From UHGV virus genome UHGV-2130109: 13,198 nucleotides of DNA, one strand, 5' to 3'. The position numbers and the translations under genes were made by a program. This DNA is from a virus. Under the pieces are notes generated by a model, which made no database searches, was not told the DNA's origin, and was given only the letters and a program-made list of their open reading frames with translations. Shown here one piece after another: positions 259-13,198 of this stretch. Position 1 is the first letter of the stretch; each line of letters begins with the position of its first letter.

Positions 259-1341
259 TTACCCCCTGAAACCCGGCGGAATTTCGGTGTCCGGTTCAGA
301 AATGTGATTCACGCAACGCAGGCTGACTGCGCCAGCCTTCGGCAGCGACCACGGATTTTCGAAATTCCTGTTCGGGCCAAAAAACGTCGATGCCTGCTGA
401 ACAAATTCAGTTCCCGCTTTCCCGGTAGCCTCCAGGTATCTTGCGTAACGCCTCACGCCATCCAGCACGACATCCGGTGACACCCCTTCGCGTAATCTGG
501 CCCTCCAGGCATTGAACGCGGATTTCTTCGGGTTTGACCCTGCCCGATGCGGATATTCACGCCAGACCCGTTCGAACACGTCAGGATAATCAACTCGTCC
601 CGCAGACGGTCCCGGCATCTCCCGGGTTAACCCAATCGGCTTCCCGCTCATCGCGGAATCGGCATCAGGCTGCTGCGGTTGGTGCTGTTGCTCCGGTTCG
701 ACGATCAGCACCTGCTGCACACAACGCCCGGAATCTGCTTCCGGTGTCGTGCCAGTTGGTCCTGGACGCTCAGTCAGAACGGGGCAAGAATCCCCCTGTG
801 GGTCCGTGGCGATTTTTTCGCCATGGACCAGAAGGGTTTTATCTCTTTCCTGTTCCTGTTCCTGTTCTTGTTCTTGGCTTGAAAGGGGCTCTGAAGGGGC
901 TTCAATTTTCCGACATGATTCACGTCTGACATCCAGATGGAAATCATCCTTATATCTATCATAAAAGGATGATAAAAAAGGATTTTCCAGCAACGCGGAA
1001 TATTCATTTCTTACCCCAGCACAACGGTTATCGCCAGGTTTCAGCGATTCACCAACCTGCCATGCTGCCATTTCATGCACCCATACAACCTCAGAATCAT
1101 GGTCATAGCTGCAAAAACCAGCCTCGCAAGCCATCTGAAGCCCCTTAGAAGCCCCTTCAGGCTCAAGTCCGGTTTCGTGAGCAATGTACAAAACGGGCAG
1201 GTAATAAAGGCCCAGCATATTGGAATGAGGCGAGGTCATCATATACAACGCCACTACCATACATTCCGGACCAGACTTCCTTAGTTTTCGCCCTGTTTCG
1301 CCTAACCAGAACTGAGGTGAAATTGTTGCGTAATTACGCAT
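259..1341 (-). CDS. Phage replication initiation protein (functional analogue of lambda O), with a C-terminal region resembling DnaT/primosomal-protein-like domains
   Basis: 360-codon ORF with ATG at 1341-1339 preceded by GAGAGGGG SD. Position directly after cII and before the DnaC-like gene. C-terminal block (VDYPDVFERVWREYPHRAGSNPKKSAFNAWRARL...) resembles DnaT-like C-termini as I recall them. Central low-complexity (EQ)n linker. Not similar to lambda O itself. Confidence 0.65.
   Translation of the reverse strand: MRNYATISPQFWLGETGRKLRKSGPECMVVALYMMTSPHSNMLGLYYLPVLYIAHETGLEPEGASKGLQMACEAGFCSYDHDSEVVWVHEMAAWQVGESLKPGDNRCAGVRNEYSALLENPFLSSFYDRYKDDFHLDVRRESCRKIEAPSEPLSSQEQEQEQEQERDKTLLVHGEKIATDPQGDSCPVLTERPGPTGTTPEADSGRCVQQVLIVEPEQQHQPQQPDADSAMSGKPIGLTREMPGPSAGRVDYPDVFERVWREYPHRAGSNPKKSAFNAWRARLREGVSPDVVLDGVRRYARYLEATGKAGTEFVQQASTFFGPNRNFENPWSLPKAGAVSLRCVNHISEPDTEIPPGFRG
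594..684. repeat. Intragenic copy of the ~90-bp repeat core that is tandemly arrayed upstream of the O-like gene
   Basis: 594-684 (tcgtcccgcagacggtcccggcatctcccgggttaacccaatcggcttcccgctcatcgcggaatcggcatcaggctgctgcggttggtg) matches 1367-1457 with about 2 mismatches and the first ~83 nt of the copies starting at 1487 and 1600. Confidence 0.9.
849..877. repeat. Hexanucleotide microsatellite (CCTGTT/CTTGTT)x5 inside the O-like gene, encoding an (EQ)n linker
   Basis: cctgttcctgttcctgttcttgttcttgg read directly; corresponds to QEQEQEQEQE in the minus-strand protein. Confidence 0.9.
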
Positions 1342-2484: not shown

Positions 2485-3201
<717 letters not shown>

Positions 3202-3271: not shown

Positions 3272-4270
3272 TTGGAAATCAGCACGGCGGTTATTCATTC
3301 CGAAGAAGATGCTTTGCGTTTTGTTGAGATGTACATCGCTGGGCAAGATCTTCCTGATGGAATATCATTTGAAGGGTGGCCTAACTTAACCTTCCGTCTT
3401 ACTGGTGACAAATTTCATGGCAGTTTGACTCCTTCTGTCATGAAGGGTTTTGTTGAAATGCAGGCCCAAATAAACCGAGCTTATGCATTGTTAAAGTACG
3501 GAGTTCCTGACCCAAGAAAGCTTTCAAAAGAAGAGAAGGAAGCTATCGAAATTCAGGTGAATGTTGAGAATGGCTCGTCCTTGATAGAAGTTAATATGGA
3601 TGGGTTCATGGGTGAGGTTATACAAACTGCGGTGAGTAAAGTGGGCCCTCAAGAGATCGTTATTACAGTTTTAGGGGTCGCTCTTATATGGGGCGGCGTC
3701 GTCCTATTCAAAAAATATCTAGAAGACCGCAAAGAGATTCGCATGGCAGAAGTAAAAAGCGAGTCTGAGCGTGAACACCTTGCGACCATGCGCTTCATGT
3801 CTGAGCAGGAAACAAAACGAAGTGAATTATTGACTCAGATTATTAGCGAAAAACCCAAGCTAGACAACATGGAAAGACTTGCTCATGACGCAAAAACCGA
3901 CATAGTTAAATCATTTGTCAAGGCTGATACAGCTCAGATTGATGGCGTTGTATTGGATGCAGATCTATCCAAAACCCTCACTACAAATGCAAGGCGGAAA
4001 TCAATGGAGATCCGCCTTGATGGAAATTATCGCATTGAAAAGGTTGACTCCACTGATCCAGAGAGCTTCAAAGTGCAAGTGAGAAATGTTGACTCCGATC
4101 TAAGAATATCGTGCATAGTACAAGATGTTTTTCTCGACGCATCCGAGCATAAAAAAGCTCTTCAGCAAGCTGAGTGGGATAGAAAACCAGTTCATTTGTC
4201 AATCAACGCAAAAGAACTAGATGGTGAAATAAAGTCCGCGATAATACTTTATGTCAAAGAGATAACATAA
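3272..4270 (+). CDS. Hypothetical single-pass membrane protein occupying the rexA/rexB position downstream of cI; candidate lysogen-expressed exclusion/abortive-infection factor
   Basis: 332-codon ORF with TTG start 7 nt after a GAGG SD. Central hydrophobic helix (IVITVLGVALIWGGVVLF, about residues 129-147), soluble N-terminal domain, charged K/E-rich C-terminal half. AT-rich spacer and low GC relative to cI. I recognise no similarity to RexA or RexB. Confidence 0.6.
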   Translation: MEISTAVIHSEEDALRFVEMYIAGQDLPDGISFEGWPNLTFRLTGDKFHGSLTPSVMKGFVEMQAQINRAYALLKYGVPDPRKLSKEEKEAIEIQVNVENGSSLIEVNMDGFMGEVIQTAVSKVGPQEIVITVLGVALIWGGVVLFKKYLEDRKEIRMAEVKSESEREHLATMRFMSEQETKRSELLTQIISEKPKLDNMERLAHDAKTDIVKSFVKADTAQIDGVVLDADLSKTLTTNARRKSMEIRLDGNYRIEKVDSTDPESFKVQVRNVDSDLRISCIVQDVFLDASEHKKALQQAEWDRKPVHLSINAKELDGEIKSAIILYVKEIT

Positions 4271-4277
4271 TCCTCAT

Positions 4278-4303
4278 CCCGGCCTCAGCGCCGGGTTTTC
4301 TTT
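4278..4303 (+). terminator. Intrinsic terminator ending the cI operon (tIMM-like)
   Basis: cccggc-ctcagc-gccggg followed by ttttcttt, directly after the 3272-4270 stop. Confidence 0.6.
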
Positions 4304-4455
4304 GCCTCACGATCGCCCCACCTAAAAACACATAACCAATTGTATTTGTTGAAAAATAAATAGATACAACTCACTAAACATCGCAATTCTGATCTCTCGC
4401 CCTCCAAAGCAATACCCCAATTCAAAAAATAAATTCATATAAAAAACATACAGAT

Positions 4456-4518
4456 AACCATCTGCGGTGATGAGCTATCTCTAGCGGTGTTGACTTAAAT
4501 ACCACTAGCGGTGATACT
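4456..4518. promoter_or_regulatory. Left operator oL3-oL2-oL1 with pL (-35 TTGACT 4490-4495, -10 GATACT 4513-4518), transcribing rightward into N
   Basis: oL3 4456-4472 AACCATCTGCGGTGATG, oL2 4476-4492 TATCTCTAGCGGTGTTG, oL1 4500-4516 TACCACTAGCGGTGATA. Near-identical to lambda oL/pL except G->A in oL1 and oL2 and one change at the oL3 edge. Confidence 0.85.
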
Positions 4519-4586
4519 AAACACATCAGCAGGACGCACTACTCACCAGGGCGGTGAATATACAACGATTCGAATATGAATCTACG

Positions 4587-4601
4587 GCGCTGACAAAGCG
4601 C
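4587..4601 (+). promoter_or_regulatory. nutL boxB hairpin, P22-type (GCGCTGACAAAGCGC)
   Basis: 5-bp GC-rich stem with GACAA pentaloop about 60 nt downstream of the pL start. Matches the P22 boxB sequence as I recall it. No clear boxA consensus found upstream. Confidence 0.55.
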
Positions 4602-4766
4602 AATAACCAAAGTGAACTTTGGGGTGTGGTGAAGGGTTCATGGACGGGAATATGTCGCACGTAAAGCGGCGGGGTCTGCGGGACTATTGCCGAATTGAAG
4701 TAGGCCGAAACAGGTCGAAATGGGTCTCCCACCTACCACACCACCAAAGTTCATCAGGAGGTCTAT

Positions 4767-5150
4767 ATGACACGCAGAACTCAGTTCAAAGGCAATTCAC
4801 GCTCTCATCGTCGTGAGCGTTTAAAGGCAAAGGCATTAGCTAACGGCGTGCTGGCCCGCGAAGAAGCAATAAGTTCAGAAGTATTACACCGCCCTACTCT
4901 AAGCAGAGCGCAGATTCAGGCTAAAGGTACTCACGAAACGCCTGAGCGCATAGAAGACGCTAAGCCAATTAAGTTCATGGCACAGGACGTGATCTGGCAA
5001 CAGAAAGAATACAGACGCAATCTGGAGCGAGCGGCCATTGTGTACGCGAATGAGTTTGGACATAAGCAACCAGAAACTGGTGTATGTCTTCCAAACGTAG
5101 CCATTTACGCGGCAGGCTATCGCAAATCAGGAACAATAACAGCGAGGTGA
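4767..5150 (+). CDS. N: N-like transcription antitermination protein (P22 gene 24 type)
   Basis: 127 aa, first gene of the pL operon, AGGAGG SD. N-terminal arginine-rich motif (GNSRSHRRERLKAKALA) resembles the P22 N ARM (GNAKTRRHERRRKLAIER). C-terminal ..AIYAAGYRKSGTITAR resembles P22 gp24. Confidence 0.7.
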   Translation: MTRRTQFKGNSRSHRRERLKAKALANGVLAREEAISSEVLHRPTLSRAQIQAKGTHETPERIEDAKPIKFMAQDVIWQQKEYRRNLERAAIVYANEFGHKQPETGVCLPNVAIYAAGYRKSGTITAR

Positions 5151-5153
5151 TAA

Positions 5154-5867
5154 ATGACAACGCCTTCAGTTTTGCCGCAAAAATTATGGCGTCCACTTGC
5201 AGAGATTAAAAACTTCGTTGAAAAAATGCCTGATGGCGTTCGACTTACGGAAGTTACTAAAAAAGTTAAGACATTTGCCGAACTGTCAGGCAAGGAGAGA
5301 AACCAGCTCATCGATTTTATCGATAAACGGGAAAGCATCATTGTATTTAAGGTCAGAAAAGAAGGTTCTGGTAACGGAGTAACCTTTTTCCGCCACAAAA
5401 AATATGGATATCCCAAACGGGAAGGAAACGTGACCATCATTAAGGACCTTCAGTCAAAATTATGCACCAGATGCGGGCAGACAAAATCAGTCGATGATTT
5501 TTATTCAGATGCCAGCAAACGTGACGGGAGAGCCATTTATTGTAAGAAGTGCGAATCTGCAATGAAACGCTTGCGCAGAGAATGTAATAAATTAATTCTG
5601 CAACAACAGGAATCTGAAATGAATAACCTCAAAGTAGTTTCACCTTCACCAGAAACACTCAGAAAACAGGCAGAAGAATTGCTGAAAGCCGCCGAAATTG
5701 CGGAGAAAAAACGTCAGGAAGATGATGTATTCAACAAAAAACTCGCGCCCTTAAAACTTGAAATTCTTCAGGCCGCCGGAAAAATGCAGCTTAAACTGGA
5801 CGAGTTCATCGACTGCATGGATGAAATGAATAAAGCGGTTCAGAAACTTAAAGAACTGACCTCCTGA
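5154..5867 (+). CDS. Hypothetical protein with CxxC-x19-CxxC zinc-ribbon motif and coiled-coil C-terminus
   Basis: 237-codon ORF starting 4 nt after the N stop with GAGGTGA SD. Low GC. Motif CTRCGQTKSVDDFYSDASKRDGRAIYCKKC. No family recognised. Confidence 0.6.
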   Translation: MTTPSVLPQKLWRPLAEIKNFVEKMPDGVRLTEVTKKVKTFAELSGKERNQLIDFIDKRESIIVFKVRKEGSGNGVTFFRHKKYGYPKREGNVTIIKDLQSKLCTRCGQTKSVDDFYSDASKRDGRAIYCKKCESAMKRLRRECNKLILQQQESEMNNLKVVSPSPETLRKQAEELLKAAEIAEKKRQEDDVFNKKLAPLKLEILQAAGKMQLKLDEFIDCMDEMNKAVQKLKELTS

Positions 5868-6658: not shown

Positions 6659-6716
6659 TGCTGTGTGTAGTCATTGGCGGCATCAGTTTATTGCTGGCTG
6701 ATGTCCGCCCTTTTTT
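6659..6716 (+). ncRNA. dicF: DicF-like small RNA (cell-division-inhibiting sRNA family) ending in an intrinsic terminator
   Basis: ...TTGGCGGCATCAGTTTATTGCTGGCTGATGTCCGCCCTTTTTT shares the UUGGCGG(U/C)AUCAGUUU core and the CCGCCC-U-run terminator with E. coli DicF as I recall it (UUUCUGGUGACGUUUGGCGGUAUCAGUUUUACUCCGUGACUGCUCUGCCGCCC). Preceded by about 200 nt of ORF-poor, hairpin-rich sequence. The 5' end is approximate. Confidence 0.45.
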
Positions 6717-6892
6717 AAAGTGAATTTTGTGATGCGGTGAATGCGGCTAAGCGCACGCGGAACAGTTAAACCGACAGGATGTCACGGCAAGTCATCATCC
6801 CCTGACCCGGCGTTAATTGTTAACTGGTTAACGTCACCTGGAGGCACCAGGCACCGCATCAACAAAGTTCATTTGTGAAAATGGAGATAATT

Positions 6893-7114
6893 ATGATTGC
6901 TCATCACTTCGGGACTGATGAAATACCACGTCAGTGCGTGACACCTGGCGATTATGTTCTTCATGAAGGCCGCACATATATCGCTTCAGCAAACAATATT
7001 GAAAAGAGAAAGCTCTATATTCGTAACTTCACGACAAAAACATGCATTACCGACTGCATGATTAAAGTTTTCCTGGGACGCGATGGTTTGCCTGTAAAGG
7101 CCGAATCATGGTGA
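6893..7114 (+). CDS. dicB: Small protein, possible DicB-like cell-division inhibitor (functional counterpart of lambda Kil)
   Basis: ORF track gives a GTG start at 6875; the ATG at 6893 has a GGAG SD 6 nt upstream. Segment [27 protein letters not shown] is weakly similar to E. coli DicB (INKRKQERELLNKICIVSMLARLRLMPKG, from memory). Lies immediately downstream of the DicF-like sRNA as in the Qin dicF-dicB arrangement. Confidence 0.4.
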
Positions 7115-7188
7115 TGAGCAATAAATACGCTCTCTAAATCCACACTGAAACAACAATTCACATTAGTTATCAACACTGGAAACGTAAA

Positions 7189-7581
7189 ATGAAAGAACTC
7201 GCACAGAACGAAGTGTTCTCAGAATCCTGCCCTGACGCAATAAATGAGCTTAAAGAAATCGCAGCACGCATAAATGAAATATGCAAAAAACACAAGATAG
7301 ATTATGTCTATTCATTTTCAGAGCTAACAGAAATCGCAATTAACGAATATAAGGACAGTCGTTTTGTTTCCTTCGGTTTGTATTGCGAAACTTCCAGCCC
7401 ATATATTCATGCAGCATCTGAAATTGTCGACAGTACAATTAAACCACAGGCAATACTGGAACTGGCAATGGCTCTTCAGCTTATCAGAGAGAATGGTGAA
7501 TGCACCTGTGACTGCCCTGAATGCCAGCACGAACAGACTCAGGCCAGCACCAAAACCGCAAACAAGAAAGCATTTCACTGA
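7189..7581 (+). CDS. Hypothetical Cys-rich protein (130 aa)
   Basis: ORF with C-terminal CTCDCPECQ cluster. No family recognised. Confidence 0.45.
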   Translation: MKELAQNEVFSESCPDAINELKEIAARINEICKKHKIDYVYSFSELTEIAINEYKDSRFVSFGLYCETSSPYIHAASEIVDSTIKPQAILELAMALQLIRENGECTCDCPECQHEQTQASTKTANKKAFH

Positions 7582-7651: not shown

Positions 7652-9712
7652 ATGAGCACTGATAAACAAGTTTACCCACTGTATTACGAAGCAAAAAATG
7701 ACAAGGTAAGAAAACGCCTCGGCATTAAAGGCGGTTTTTACTGGGCTGAGGCGAAAAAATTATCCATTGCAATCTCTCGTGGTGCTGTTGCGATTGACGA
7801 TGCGGGCTACGATGAAGATGACTTTAAAAAACCTGTTCGCGTTCATTTGCCCGTCGTAAATGACCTTCCACCGGAAGGAGTGTTTGATACCGAATTCTGT
7901 AATCGCTATGAAAAAGGCGGTAACGATGGCATCACCATGATGGCTATACCCTCCGATGACAACATCAACGGTGAAGATGCCACAACGGCTGACGGTGGCA
8001 ACGATGACCCAGACGGAGCTGTTCCGGGTAATGCGGAGAAAATCGAATCCACAGACAGCGACGATGACTGTATTGACTGTGAAATTCCCGTCGCCACTCT
8101 CAGTCTTACCCATCGTTTCCTTCACCTCTTCTTCTTTAGCAAGGATAAAGATGGAAAATACCGGCATCACGCCACACCAGAACAACGTAATAATGTGATC
8201 CGTCTGGAGATGGACACAGAAGATAGTTACCTTCAGAGCCTGCTTACTGCTGTGCGTTCACATCCAGAGCTGGATAAGCTGACGAATTATCACCTTAGCC
8301 GCCTGGCTGAATCTGTAGGGAAAGCATTCCCCCACTCTGCAAATCATCGCATCAGCCCGGCTGAATTCGACAAGTTCATTTCCACCTGGATGAAAACTGA
8401 CTACCTTGATCAGGGCCTGCTGACAAAAGAATGGCAGAACGGAAATTATGTTTCAGGCATTACCCGTACGCCTTCCGGTGCTAACGCTGGCGGCGGAAAT
8501 ATTACCGATCGTGGTGAAGGATTCAAACATGATAAGACATCACTCGCACGAGATGTAGCCACCGGCGTTCTGGCCCGTTCAATGGATGTGGATATTTATA
8601 ACCTGCACCCAGCACACGCAAAACGCGTTGAAGAAATCGTGTCAGAGAATAAGCCGCCCTTTTCTGTTTTTCGCGACAAATTTATCGCCATGCCCGGTGG
8701 GCTGGATTATTCCCGCGCCATTGTGGTGGCTTCCGTGAAAGAAGCACCAATCGGCATTGAGGCCATCCCGGCACGCGTGACTGAATATCTCAACAAAGTG
8801 TTGACCGAAACCGATCACGCTAACCCGGATCCGGAAATCGTGGAAATTGCCTGCGGTCGCTCATCAGCACCGATGCCGCAGCGCGGAACAGCAGAAGGAA
8901 AACATGGCGATGAAGAAAAGCAACAAACATCGGACACAATGGCTAATGAACAGGCAGCGCCTGAATCAGTGGAAGAAATTCCAGTTAAACATAATGAGGA
9001 CACGCAATCACTGGAAAATGTCTCATCTGTAGAAACGAAATACCAGGAACTGAGGGAGGAACTCAATAAAGCCAGGGAAAACATCCCCCCAAAAAATCCA
9101 GTCGATGCCGACAAATTACTGGCGGCTTCTCGCGGAGAATTCGTTGAAGGTATCAGCGACCCAACCGACCCGAAGTGGGTGAAGGGGATCCAGACTCGCG
9201 ACACTGAAGACCAGAATCAATCCAAAGTGGAACAAAATGAGCCAGAAGCGGAACAAAACAGCCCGGATACGCAACAAAACGGACCAGCAGAGCAACAACC
9301 AGAGCCAGTAGCACAACCGGAGCTGGAAAAATCCTGCCGCGTCTGTGCTCAGACTGGTGGGGGCAACTGCCCTGACTGCGGTCCGGTAATAGGAGATGAA
9401 ACTTACGCTGAAATTTTTGGAGAAAACGGCACATCTGCTGAAGAGAACTCAGCACAAGCGGATGTCCTGGAAAGTTCCGCTGATACAACTCATGAACTCG
9501 AGGCAGTTGCCCGGAATGCTCAGGGCAACAATGCGCCCGACGATAAGGCTGATTCAGAACCAGAAATTCTCGACTGGAAAAGACAGCTCGTGATTGCAGC
9601 CGTCTATGGTTTGTGCGCCAACCCCGCATGTATAGCCACAGCGCCAGCAATCCCTGATATCGCCATCATGATTGCCAACAGGCTTGAAAATTTCGGAGGT
9701 GATAAATCATGA
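7652..9712 (+). CDS. Large acidic protein (686 aa) resembling the N-terminal non-nuclease region of RecE (exonuclease VIII) but lacking a recognisable nuclease domain; C-terminal CxxC-x7-CxxC zinc ribbon
   Basis: Start chosen at ATG 7652 (MSTDKQ..., AGAGG upstream) rather than the track's 7364, which overlaps the preceding gene. Blocks such as [50 protein letters not shown] and [28 protein letters not shown] match my recollection of the E. coli RecE N-terminal region. Stop overlaps the gam start (ATGA at 9709-9712). Confidence 0.6.
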
Positions 9713-10005
9713 ATGCCTGGCTTATCCCCGATCGCATTGAAGAGCAGTCATGGGCACGACACTACCAGCAAATTGCCCGTGAAGAAACTGAAGCTGAGCT
9801 GGCAGACGACCTGGAAAAAGGTCTGCCCCAACACCTGTTTGAATCGCTATGCATCGATAATCTGCAACGTCACGGGGCCAGCAAAAAAGCTATTTCCCGT
9901 GCATTTGATGACGATGTCGATTTTCAGGAACGCATGGCAGAACACATCCGCTACATGGCTGAAACCATCGCCCGTCACCAAATTAATATTGATTCAGAGG
10001 TATAA
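9709..10005 (+). CDS. gam: Gam, RecBCD inhibitor (short form)
   Basis: 98 aa, [50 protein letters not shown]...; near-identical to the lambda GamS region as I recall it. Confidence 0.9.
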
Positions 10006-10010
10006 AACGG

Positions 10011-10796
10011 ATGAGTACAGCACTCGCAACGCTGGCAGGGAAGCTGGCTGAACGTGTCGGCATGGATTCTGTCGACCCACAGGAACTGATTACCACTCTT
10101 CGCCAGACAGCATTTAAAGGTGATGCCAGCGATGCCCAGTTCATCGCACTACTGATCGTCGCTAACCAGTACGGCCTTAATCCATGGACGAAAGAGATTT
10201 ACGCCTTTCCTGATAAACAGAACGGTATCGTTCCGGTGGTGGGTGTTGATGGCTGGTCCCGCATCATCAATGAAAACCAGCAGTTTGATGGCATGGACTT
10301 TGAGCAGGACGATGAATCATGTACATGCCGGATTTACCGCAAAGACCGAAATCATCCGATCTGCGTTACCGAGTGGATGGATGAATGTCGCCGCGCACCA
10401 TTCAAAACCCGCGAAGGCAGAGAAATCACCGGACCGTGGCAGTCGCATCCCAAACGGATGTTACGGCACAAAGCCATGATTCAGTGTGCTCGCCTGGCCT
10501 TCGGATTTGCTGGCATCTATGACAAGGATGAAGCCGAGCGTATTGTCGAAAATACTGCATATACTACAGAACGTCAGCCGGAACGCGACATCACCCCGGT
10601 TAACGAAGAAACCATGTCGGAAATTAACGCCCTTCTTACTTCCATGGAAAAAACGTGGGATGACGACCTGTTGCCGCTCTGTTCCCAGATTTTTCGCCGC
10701 AACATTTACACATCTTCAGAACTAACACAGGCTGAAGCTGTGAAGGTTCTTGGATTCCTGAAACAGAAAGTCACAGAGCAGAAGGTAGCAGCATGA
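10011..10796 (+). CDS. bet: Bet (Red-beta) single-strand annealing protein
   Basis: 261 aa, [98 protein letters not shown]...; essentially lambda Bet. Confidence 0.95.
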
Positions 10797-11470
10797 CACC
10801 GGACATTATCCTGCAACGTACAGGGATCGACGTGAGAGCTGTCGAACAGGGGGATGATGCGTGGCACAAATTACGGCTCGGCGTCATCACCGCTTCAGAA
10901 GTTCACAACGTGATAGCAAAACCCCGCTCAGGAAAGAAATGGCCTGACATGAAAATGTCCTACTTCCACACCCTGCTGGCTGAGGTTTGCACCGGTGTGG
11001 CTCCGGAAGTTAACGCTAAAGCGCTGGCCTGGGGAAAACAGTACGAGAACGACGCCAGAGCCCTCTTTGAGTTCACTTCCGGCGTGAATGTTACTGAATC
11101 CCCGATCATCTATCGCGACGAAAGTATGCGCACCGCCTGCTCTCCCGATGGTTTATGCAGTGACGGCAACGGCCTTGAACTGAAATGCCCGTTTACCTCC
11201 CGGGATTTCATGAAATTCCGGCTCGGTGGTTTCGAGGCCATAAAGTCGGCTTACATGGCCCAGGTGCAGTACAGCATGTGGGTGACACGAAAAGATGCCT
11301 GGTACTTTGCCAACTATGACCCGCGTATGAAGCGTGAAGGACTGCATTATGTCGTGGTCGAACGGGATGAAAAATACATGGCTGGTTTTGACGAAATGGT
11401 GCCAGAGTTCATCGAAAAAATGGACGAGGCACTGGCTGAAATTGGTTTTGTATTTGGGGAGCAATGGTGA
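10793..11470 (+). CDS. exo: Lambda-type 5'-3' exonuclease (Red-alpha)
   Basis: 225 aa, [65 protein letters not shown]...; essentially lambda Exo. ATGA overlap with bet. Confidence 0.95.
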
Positions 11471-11521
11471 TAGCCAGTAGCAACGAGGTGCAAATGATAT
11501 GACAATTAAGGAATACTACCG

Positions 11522-11773
11522 GTGTTCGTTCTAATCCAGCGCGGGCAGTCTTTCGTCGATGCCAACAACTATCCGGTTGAAGTCTGCAAAATCACTCTGA
11601 CGCAGGTAATCTTCCGCAGGCTGGATGGGAGAACCAGAGCCGCTTCAATTAGCGCATTTAATGCAGAATTTGAGCGAATCGATCACAACGAACTACACAT
11701 GATTAAAGCAGAAATTGAGAAGGAAAAGCATATTGCCAGCCTTCGAAAAATGCGCCGCATATCAATCAACTGA
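11522..11773 (+). CDS. Small hypothetical ORF (83 codons, GTG start), possibly a frameshifted remnant
   Basis: Ends immediately before an intrinsic terminator. An 11-codon ATG ORF with good SD (11499-11534) lies in another frame just upstream. Confidence 0.3.
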   Translation: MFVLIQRGQSFVDANNYPVEVCKITLTQVIFRRLDGRTRAASISAFNAEFERIDHNELHMIKAEIEKEKHIASLRKMRRISIN

Positions 11774-11774
11774 C

Positions 11775-11796
11775 AACCGCCTTCGGGCGGTTTTTA
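11775..11796 (+). terminator. Intrinsic terminator (UUCG tetraloop hairpin plus T-run)
   Basis: aaccgcc-ttcg-ggcggtt followed by ttttt at 11791-11795, between the small ORF and xis. Confidence 0.7.
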
Positions 11797-11807
11797 ATGG
11801 CGAAAAT

Positions 11808-12179
11808 ATGGATTCACACAGTATCACCCTCAAAGAGGCCTGTAAGTTTCTCAAGATATCAAGGCCAACAGCTGTTAACTGGATACGAACGGGCCGACTA
11901 CAGGCAACCCGAAAAAATTCTTCCGGTAAAAGATCACCTTATCTCACAACCCGGCAAGCCTGCATTGCAGCACTTCATTCACCGCTGCATACTGTCCAGG
12001 TGAGCGCGGGTGATGGCATAACAGAGGAAAGAAAATGTCACTCTTCCGCAGAGGTGAAATATGGTACGCCTCGTACTCGCTCCCGGGCGGGAAGCGAATT
12101 AAGGAGTCTCTTGGCACAAAGGACAAGCGGCAAGCTCAGGAGTTGCACGACAAGCGAAAAGCAGAACTCTGGCGAGTAG
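11808..12179 (+). CDS. xis: Excisionase (P22 Xis type)
   Basis: Start at the ATG of [36 protein letters not shown]... (helix-turn-helix-like). The 3' end overlaps the int start, as is common for xis-int pairs. Track ORF 11715-12179 includes a TTG-initiated extension that I did not use. Confidence 0.6.
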
Positions 12180-13198
12180 ACAGACTGGGGGATATGCCAG
12201 ATGTCACTTTCGAAGAAGCCTGCCTGAGATGGCTTGAGGAAAAAGCCGACAAGAAATCCATCGATTCCGATAAATCCAGAATCGCATTCTGGATTGAGCA
12301 TTTCGAGGGAATAAGGATTAAGGATATATCGGAGGCAATGATCTACTCAGTTATCAGCAAAGCGTATAACCGAAAAACAAAGGAGAGATGGAAGTTGCAG
12401 GTGGAGGCTGCATTAAGAAAAGGGAAAGAACCACCAGCCTATATACCTAAATCGGTGAGCACGCAAACAAAAGCAACACACCTGGCAATGATCAAGGCTA
12501 TTCTGCGCGCCGCAGAGCGAGACTGGAAATGGCTTGAAAAAGCACCTGTAATCAAAATACCTGCCGTAAAAAACAAACGCGTGAGATGGCTGGAAAAAGA
12601 AGAAGCCAGGAGACTCATTGATGCATGTTCTGATCCCCTGAAATCTGTAGTTAAATTTGCACTGGCAACTGGCCTGAGGAGATCAAACATTATTAATCTG
12701 GAGTGGCAACAAATCGATATGCAGCGACGTGTTGCCTGGGTAAACCCTGAAGACAGTAAGTCAAACCGCGCTATTGGGGTCGCACTGAATGACACTGCCT
12801 GCAAGGTGTTGCGTGATCAAATAGGCAAACATCACCGCTGGGTGTTTGTTTATACCACTGCTGCCAGAAGGCCTGACGGGACAATGACACCAAGCATCAG
12901 AAAGATGCGCCTGGACTATAACACATCGTGGTTAACAGCATGTCGTCGGGCAGGAATTGAAAATTTCCGTTTTCATGACCTCCGCCATACCTGGGCCAGT
13001 TGGTTAATTCAGTCAGGTGTACCACTGTCAGTACTTCAGGAAATGGGCGGCTGGGAGTCTATCGAAATGGTGCGTAGGTACGCACACCTTGCACCTAATC
13101 ATTTGACAGAGCACGCGAGGAAAATTGACGACATATTGGGTGACGATGTCCCAAATTTGTCCCACCCTGAGGTTTTTGAGGATGCAAAGAAAGCATAA
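12035..13198 (+). CDS. int: Tyrosine site-specific integrase (P22 Int type)
   Basis: 387 aa, [21 protein letters not shown]... with C-terminal catalytic motifs (...[40 protein letters not shown]...). Stop codon is the last 3 nt of the window; attP would lie beyond. Confidence 0.95.

Follow-up and report, generated by a model that had tools for sequence, protein, structure and literature searches.

A RecE-family protein whose nuclease domain is replaced by a conserved helical tail, encoded beside gam-bet-exo in an Escherichia coli lambdoid prophage

We have analysed a 13,198-nt stretch of viral DNA, UHGV-2130109 (referred to as the window, always at its full length), which is part of an E. coli lambdoid prophage, and have focused on one gene at 7652-9712 on the plus strand, immediately upstream of lambda-type gam, bet and exo. 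Its 686-amino-acid (aa) product belongs to the RecE (exonuclease VIII) family, but a conserved 46-residue helical tail stands where RecE has its PD-(D/E)XK nuclease domain. Very probably this is an intact, selectively maintained, non-enzymatic RecE paralogue, made of two folded domains, the RecE linker and the 46-residue tail, and carried in the pL operon, with an N-terminal module that is portable and is joined to interchangeable C-terminal cassettes. Our literature searches returned no description of a nuclease-less RecE, of PF06630, or of RecE in anti-defence; that is, we have found no description of the nuclease-less tail variant, though the databases hold many copies of it under a misleading name.

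A RecE-family protein that lacks the nuclease domain

The open reading frame (ORF) at 7652-9712 translates with zero internal stops, and a GAGG lies 11 nt 5' of its ATG. A 100% identical coding sequence is present in four complete E. coli genomes, e.g. TOE17 (WP_032188272.1). For the identical E. coli copy the Prokaryotic Genome Annotation Pipeline (PGAP) predicts the same extent, and in TOE17 it gives the label 'RecE family exodeoxyribonuclease'; the genes after it are annotated there as Gam, Bet, lambda exonuclease, a DUF4222 protein and an integrase. The parts of the gene are listed below. The domain map was derived from an AlphaFold2 (AF2) model built on a 50-sequence diverse alignment (A4); a model from 24 close homologues had a predicted local distance difference test score (pLDDT) of 34 and was unusable.

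7652..9712, plus strand: gene of the nuclease-less RecE-family protein, 686 aa, TGA stop at 9710-9712 (ORF, NF007259, identity to WP_032188272.1)
7652..7951, plus strand: predicted N-terminal alpha/beta domain, residues 1-100 (AF2, pLDDT 74-91)
7952..8071, plus strand: acidic variable loop, residues 101-140, predicted disordered (pLDDT ~30; variable in alignments A1 and A4)
8072..8863, plus strand: conserved helical domain, residues 141-404, including a conserved loop and an LTETDH motif (AF2; pLDDT 70-94 per 10-residue block, mostly 83-94)
8864..9571, plus strand: acidic Q/E/P/N-rich linker, residues 405-640, predicted disordered (pLDDT <50; aligns to RecE 363-555)
9335..9379, plus strand: CxxC-x7-CxxC zinc-ribbon motif, residues 562-576, inherited from RecE (cysteine positions; same motif in K-12 RecE)
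9572..9709, plus strand: conserved two-helix tail, residues 641-686, in the nuclease domain's place (conservation; AF2)

The relation to RecE is clear over most of the protein. BLASTP pairs query residues 48-599 with residues 40-555 of K-12 RecE (Rac, b1350, 866 aa; 54% identity, E 8e-180), so that residues 1 to ~599 are homologous to RecE 1 to ~555, and Pfam reports PF06630 (E 1.3e-10). The two proteins have in common the conserved core, the acidic linker and the zinc ribbon CNACGQTGGDNCPDCG, which sits at K-12 RecE 516-531; RecE ~400-555 holds both the acidic Q/E/P stretch and this ribbon. Sequence that does not belong to RecE is confined to the final ~87 residues (~600-686). Even closer is a full-length RecE of 1049 aa that is followed by RecT (P0120), with 86% identity over focal residues 1-591. 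The C-terminus was thus exchanged rather than slowly decayed.

The nuclease domain, in contrast, is missing. The NCBIfam model for exodeoxyribonuclease VIII, NF007259, matches with E 1.1e-227, but only over model positions 1-578 of 877, and the score of 758.3 bits is below the curated equivalog cut-off of 1269 bits. PF12684 (PD-(D/E)XK) is absent from the focal protein in the Pfam scan, which does find it in P0120 and in P0174. BLASTP gives no similarity to RecE 588-866 and no alignment past RecE residue 555. A frame-shifted remnant of the nuclease was sought by tblastx and was not found; the idea that the tail itself is such a remnant was dropped when blastn and tblastx against Rac recE-recT gave zero matches. 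Thus, of four features of exonuclease VIII, the protein has the N-terminal RecE region (PF06630 plus the conserved core) and lacks a score above the equivalog cut-off, the C-terminal PD-(D/E)XK 5'-3' exonuclease domain (RecE ~588/606-866) and a downstream recT, in whose place gam, bet and exo follow. Failing three of the four, it does not merit the name of exonuclease. The misannotation is systematic, as the nuclease domain is likewise missing from hundreds of entries that go under 'exodeoxyribonuclease VIII' or 'RecE family exodeoxyribonuclease'.

An earlier sequence-only reading of the window had recognised the N-terminal likeness to RecE and the absence of the nuclease, and both are borne out by the pairwise alignment, whose similarity ends at ~residue 599, and by the domain and BLAST searches. 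The same reading had taken the whole acidic C-terminus as non-RecE. This holds for residues ~600-686, while the acidic Q/E/P region and the zinc ribbon turn out to be RecE's own. Neither is the acidity extreme for the family, as that reading had it: the isoelectric point (pI) is 4.64 with 17.8% D+E, against 4.70 and 17.0% in K-12 RecE, the two halves being similar.

The C-terminal tail

The tail follows a shared motif, L-T-[FYW]-x-Q-Q-L-x-x-A-A-x-x-G-L-C-A-N-P-A, and then a second helix; AF2 predicts helices at 642-656 and 658-679, with pLDDT 60-68. It ends 113 of the 120 best homologues in nearly invariant form, with one position that is either I or V. Of the seven others, six stop before the tail (three are labelled partial, and all six have PF06630 only) and the seventh is the full-length RecE P0120. 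A tail profile run against 1.84e9 (1.84 billion) representative proteins gave 11 matches. Ten were retrieved, and all of them carry the motif: they are RecE-N proteins (i.e., with the N-terminal RecE module), RecE-derived fragments and a few small ORFs. Outside these ten, the one remaining match is a 1338-aa protein with E 8e-4. The tail is kept even on RecE-N proteins from Buttiauxella, Cedecea, Lelliottia and Citrobacter that are only ~30% identical in the N-module. The focal protein itself combines the two RecE-N domains, the linker and the A-A-x-x-G-L-C-A-N-P-A helix-turn-helix tail, and has no catalytic C-terminal domain.

As to the source of the tail, it has no match in Rac by blastn or tblastx, and a lambda origin was rejected as no lambda DNA homology exists upstream of 9730. 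The tail as a known domain was also rejected, since Pfam and PHROG scans gave only the parent families phrog_607 and phrog_26058 and a meaningless PrgI hit (E 0.19). A tblastn search with the tail against 50,697 phage records matched only the same six records, and one with a small stand-alone tail ORF (P0128) gave no new phage contexts. On the strength of these sequence comparisons, the tail is a third-party cassette, and a RecET x Red crossover is not what gave rise to it.

The window tail ends in GGDKS, and its last codons, for F-G-G-D, double as the GGAGG of gam. The conservation of the extreme C-terminus may be partly explained by this, because these codons encode the Shine-Dalgarno sequence of the next gene. 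Several variant tails (P0117, P0121-P0125) run past the hairpin and end in DDEYMPNF, DDEHMPDF or SDERLPDF, an ending that the window tail does not have. E. coli SSB has an acidic tip at its C-terminus, DDDIPF, that docks onto numerous proteins of genome maintenance, and these variant ends resemble it.

Conservation, selection and spread

We have found more than 100 intact clusters (at 90% identity) of 680-700 aa in E. coli and Shigella, 77-100% identical to the focal protein with full-length coverage. Compared with two phage orthologues, the ratio of non-synonymous to synonymous substitution rates (dN/dS) is 0.22-0.28 overall. The tail is the most constrained part, with a dN/dS of 0.05 at dS 0.35, while the ratio in the spacer of residues 601-640 rises to 0.36-0.63. 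The gene order kil, a ~130-aa gene, RecE-N+tail, gam, bet, exo recurs in the phages Shigella phage 75/02 Stx, POCJ13, PhiR5_2 and phiSTEC1589-Stx1c, which are infectious. Among 5426 complete E. coli genomes, 80 contain the junction of tail and gam, O104:H4 strains being among them. Judged by these alignments, the RecE-N+tail architecture is a maintained family, not a fresh accident.

Three cassettes on the RecE N-terminal module

To place the tail among other RecE-N proteins, 80 loci from species-representative genomes of Enterobacteriaceae and Erwinia were classed by local BLAST and hidden Markov models:

PD-(D/E)XK nuclease cassette: 45 of 80 loci; recT is the next gene in 42
Rv2179c-like DEDD 3'-5' exonuclease (PF16473) cassette: 26 of 80 loci; annealing protein in 0, integrase in 25
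Tail cassette: 5 of 80 loci; gam, bet, exo and recT in none
Partial: 4 of 80 loci; mixed context

The DEDD-type proteins (PF06630 plus PF16473; Klebsiella, Citrobacter, Enterobacter, Atlantibacter, Kluyvera) have the same two-domain N-module and sit just before xis-int in Rac-like prophages; one of them, P0206, directly precedes xis and int. They differ from the focal protein in that a 3'-5' exonuclease replaces the tail and that none of the 26 loci has gam or an annealing protein beside it. This family is large and apparently unstudied (L008, L009, L022, L032, L036-L037, L053-L059 and others), and the polarity of its exonuclease is opposite to that of RecE.

The stand-alone RecE-N+tail proteins of Buttiauxella, Lelliottia, Citrobacter meridianamericanus and a Cedecea-like contig (P0129, P0130, P0132-P0137; L041, L078, L079, L092, L095) share with the focal protein the N-module, the linker, the tail motif and the second helix. 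On the other hand, their N-modules are only ~27-33% identical to it, they are without the zinc ribbon, their tails are less hydrophobic, and gam, bet, exo and recT were not found nearby. In two of them (P0129, P0130) the next gene is DUF1187 or Rrf2, and then come xis and int. Since both tail and DEDD relatives occur with no recombinase nearby, RecE-N needs no phage recombinase in its neighbourhood, which supports an independent role. Such a role for the RecE N-region had been suggested by the sequence-only reading, and with the low dN/dS and the more than 100 intact clusters it is well supported.

Elsewhere, tail-type genes are followed by gam-bet-exo (P0127, P0117) as in the window. In three E. 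coli/Shigella prophages (L012, L017, L018), a frameshifted or truncated RecE-N (+tail) gene is followed by gam and then AAA_24; in L012 (5272-6671) the tail-type gene is frameshifted and the AAA_24 protein is Sak4-like. With gam plus AAA_24 in place of bet-exo, Gam travels with the tail-type gene independently of Bet and Exo. The 86% identity of the P0120 N-module and the DNA homology to recE that reaches 9256 show that the C-terminal cassettes are exchanged within the disordered linker.

Predicted structure and charge

In the diverse family, conservation is restricted to residues 1-100 and 141-400, and residues 141-404 are the most conserved part. A CxxC at 140-143 spans the boundary between the acidic loop and the helical domain. 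The linker from 405 to ~599 is common to K-12 RecE, the spacer 601-640 evolves fast, and the zinc ribbon is absent from tail-bearing relatives of other genera. The net charge of the protein is -52, of which -45 lies in segments predicted to be disordered, and the folded domains are near neutral; residues 48-145 alone have a net charge of -22.

We have found no credible structural relative of the folded core with Foldseek, either in the PDB (best E 2.4) or in BFVD (best E 0.37), and a sequence-profile search of the PDB with the N-module only gave zero matches. A profile of the full alignment did match 8kel, but this was set aside since the match reflects the DEDD domain of other family members.

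The early-left operon and its mosaic borders

The focal gene lies in a region with the following features:

4278-4557, plus strand: pL/nutL-homologous region (89% nt identity to lambda 35550-35824)
4767-5150, plus strand: N antiterminator gene (N_peptide, PF25694)
4278..5150, plus strand: early-left region comprising the pL/nutL homology and the N gene, which places the focal gene in the early-left operon
6875-7114, plus strand: kilR-type FtsZ inhibitor (NF008465, E 6e-48)
7189-7581, plus strand: 130-aa protein with a YdaE/YnfU-like zinc motif (NF038384, E 1e-3)
6875..7581, plus strand: upstream neighbour pair of the kilR-type and 130-aa genes (order as in Rac kilR-ydaE-(racC)-recE; same in phages)
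9695..9712, plus strand: junction with gam, GGAGG at 9695-9699 and ATGA overlap at 9709-9712 (sequence reading)
9709..10005, plus strand: gam, 98-aa short form (PF06064, E 5e-65; 84% identical to lambda Gam 41-138)
10011..10796, plus strand: bet, lambda Red beta (TIGR01913, E 1e-49; 94% identical to lambda Bet)
10793..11470, plus strand: exo, lambda exonuclease, the only recombination nuclease of the operon (PF09588, E 4e-30; 98% identical to lambda Exo)

The downstream neighbours are thus homologues of Gam, Bet and Exo in the order of lambda Red, and not recT, as the sequence-only reading had stated. In lambda, too, gam-bet-exo is expressed from pL with the N antiterminator, but there a small kil is directly upstream of gam, cIII also lies upstream, and the focal protein has no counterpart. 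The coupling to gam, also part of that reading, can be read directly in the sequence: the ATG of gam at 9709-9711 overlaps the focal TGA at 9710-9712, and the GGAGG at 9695-9699 falls within the last focal codons. The pL placement and this overlap together imply that the focal protein would be made with Gam, Bet and Exo on induction. The 4-nt overlap is also present in phages 75/02 Stx and PhiR5_2 (the two loci examined in detail), and the geometry differs elsewhere, with a 2-nt gap in L013 and a 23-nt overlap in L014.

On the left side, the window is like Rac, with 89% nt identity in kilR and 76% in recE. The C-terminal cysteine cluster of the 130-aa protein, ECTCDCPECQHE, weakly matches the YnfU/YdaE zinc-binding family (E 1e-3), and since Rac ydaE also lies between kilR and recE, we regard kilR, the YdaE-like gene and RecE-N as a conserved trio. 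To the full-length recE of P0120 the identity is 92% at nt level up to 9256. On the right side, lambda DNA identity is 92% over 9730-11471. Between the two, 9257-9729 (~470 bp) matches neither Rac nor lambda DNA, and its first part, including the zinc ribbon, is RecE-like at protein level to ~residue 599. The region had been read as a recombination junction between a RecET and a Red module; this is right insofar as the locus is mosaic, Rac/RecE-like on the left and lambda-like from 9730, but the ~470 bp of neither kind and the third-party tail do not fit a plain crossover.

Some smaller observations concern this operon. The lambda homology begins 21 nt into the gam ORF, and the 138-aa Gam annotated in lambda (32816-33232) has a 40-codon N-terminal extension with no counterpart in the window. 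No strong promoter was found on the plus strand of the kil-gam interval. A terminator-like hairpin with a T-run is located at 6679-6705 (plus strand), just upstream of kilR, and read-through from there into kil, RecE-N and gam would need N-mediated antitermination; Rac carries the KilS small RNA in the corresponding region.

Possible functions

According to reviews, full-length RecE boosts linear-linear recombination, and the function of its N-terminal region is unknown (PMC11611040, PMC11610958). It is owing to this region that full-length RecET is preferred when DNA is cloned directly via linear-linear recombination. Gam still improves recombination by full-length RecET (PMC4381043), so the RecE N-region is no substitute for a RecBCD inhibitor. 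Because better linear-linear recombination is the only known phenotype of the region, we favour, tentatively and with considerable doubt, a reading in which the focal protein could be a non-catalytic accessory that handles DNA ends or recombination intermediates. The N-module would supply the same binding or tethering that lets full-length RecE join two linear DNAs far better than the nuclease domain does on its own. The hydrophobic tail might serve for self-association or partner docking, replacing what the oligomeric nuclease domain contributes in RecE, and resection would be done in trans by lambda Exo.

Several points weigh against this accessory role. Relatives of the tail and DEDD types are found in prophages that have no annealing protein, exonuclease or gam, and therefore the core job of the N-module cannot strictly depend on a phage recombinase. 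The predicted fold has no known relative, so the structure gives no indication of DNA binding. Oligomerisation or docking by the tail is purely inferential, at a pLDDT of only 60-68. Besides, work by Fu and colleagues in 2012 is said to suggest that the RecE N-region may need to be joined to the nuclease in cis, which would oppose action in trans. A broader possibility, which we consider rather doubtful, is that the RecE N-region is an autonomous module, with a fold unlike solved structures, which lambdoid phages of enterobacteria use with interchangeable cassettes, and whose tail form acts alone, for instance by tethering DNA ends or by inhibiting a host or defence protein.

The main rival, which we hold to be almost as probable as the accessory role, is that the protein is a host-takeover or anti-defence factor unrelated to recombination, in which RecE-N binds a host protein or a defence component and the cassette, be it either nuclease or the tail, only modifies or localises this activity, the tail form working by binding alone. 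The stand-alone position of tail and DEDD relatives beside xis-int, where no recombinase is present, would suit such a factor, and so would the place of the focal gene among the accessory genes of pL, next to kil and gam, whose products both target host proteins. In addition, the polar residues of the core domain show strong conservation from genus to genus, which is what a conserved host target or ligand would lead one to expect. Nevertheless, the only known phenotype of the RecE N-region lies in recombination, and recT goes with the module in 42 of 45 nuclease-type loci; the fold has no known relative, and PADLOC, whose library covers defence and not anti-defence, has no match for the focal protein or its neighbours. 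The earlier suggestion of a DNA mimic, which would occupy the DNA-binding sites of RecBCD, restriction enzymes or similar proteins and so reinforce Gam, has become highly improbable. The charge (-52, pI 4.64) and the translational link to gam would speak for it, and acidic disordered tails of some replication proteins do mimic single-stranded DNA. Like Ocr, ArdA and Gam, the focal protein is negative overall, and it is an early-expressed phage protein adjoining Gam. But ordinary RecE is just as acidic, and the charge belongs to disordered linkers, not to a rigid surface shaped like DNA, in a protein 5-7 times larger. We have found no folded scaffold with a DNA-like acidic array, and no fold similarity to ArdA (E 9.7, probability 0.02), to Ocr-like proteins or to other mimics. 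The acidic linker also varies in sequence and length, with a dN/dS of up to 0.63 in 601-640 and shorter linkers in relatives from other genera, and Gam still enhances recombination by full-length RecET (PMC4381043).

Two further explanations concern the tail and the gene as a whole. The tail could be a tail anchor or a re-entrant hairpin in the inner membrane, to which it would localise RecE-N; its best 19-residue Kyte-Doolittle mean is 1.75 against the usual threshold of ~1.6, and it stands at the extreme C-terminus. Tails of other genera, however, score 1.05-1.27 with D, E and K in the second helix, an invariant N-P breaks the hydrophobic run, and AF2 gives a helix-turn-helix. By these scores the E. 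coli tail could be a membrane anchor and the distant ones could not, and as a general account we consider an anchor improbable. Least probable by far is a non-functional remnant, that is, a recE truncated when the Red module entered and left open by chance. The mosaic nature of the region and the frameshifted or truncated copies in L012, L017 and L018 would agree with decay, but the selection data strongly disfavour it: the 2-kb ORF is intact in more than 100 diverged clusters at a dN/dS of 0.22-0.28, and the tail, which is not RecE sequence, is the most constrained part at 0.05. Besides, the architecture recurs at ~30% identity in other genera and is present in infectious phages.

If the RecE N-region is indeed an autonomous module that acts alone in its tail form, there would at last be a function for the 'dispensable' two-thirds of RecE. 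As a separate natural protein, the module presents itself without an attached nuclease, a clean natural experiment that can be tested in trans with Red. The N-terminal function of RecE thereby becomes directly testable, with possible use in recombineering; if the module does work in trans with Red, lambda Red could gain the linear-linear cloning that is now unique to full-length RecET.

Other features of the window

Outside the recombination genes, three tandem 113-nt repeats occupy 1394-1506, 1507-1619 and 1620-1732, the first two being 99% alike. A diverged fourth copy (67%) is located at 622-734, inside an O-like replication gene (259-1341, minus strand), and a 32-nt core, CGCAGACGGTCCCGGCATCTCCCGGGTTAACC, is present in all four. 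Part of the replication gene or of the origin region could have been duplicated here.

Between a cI-like repressor gene (2488-3201) and pL, i.e., at the position of rexAB in lambda, there is a 332-aa ORF (3272-4270, plus strand), a member of phrog_6191 (unknown function, E 1e-137) whose product contains the hydrophobic segment IVITVLGVALIWGGVVLF. PADLOC gives no match for it, and we regard it as a candidate exclusion or defence moron. In the early-left region, a 237-aa protein (5154-5867, plus strand; phrog_2539, unknown function) is conserved in related Stx phages. A weak similarity (E 5e-10 to 1e-6) links its residues ~99-163 to the zinc-finger region found in endonuclease VII, HNH or Lar-like restriction-alleviation proteins.

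In the TOE17 prophage, a helix-turn-helix (excisionase-like) gene between the DUF4222 gene and the integrase is an incomplete pseudogene according to PGAP. The counterpart region in the window is at 11715-12179 and 12035-13198, both on the plus strand. With 387 aa, the integrase ORF is listed as complete, and the window ends on its stop codon.

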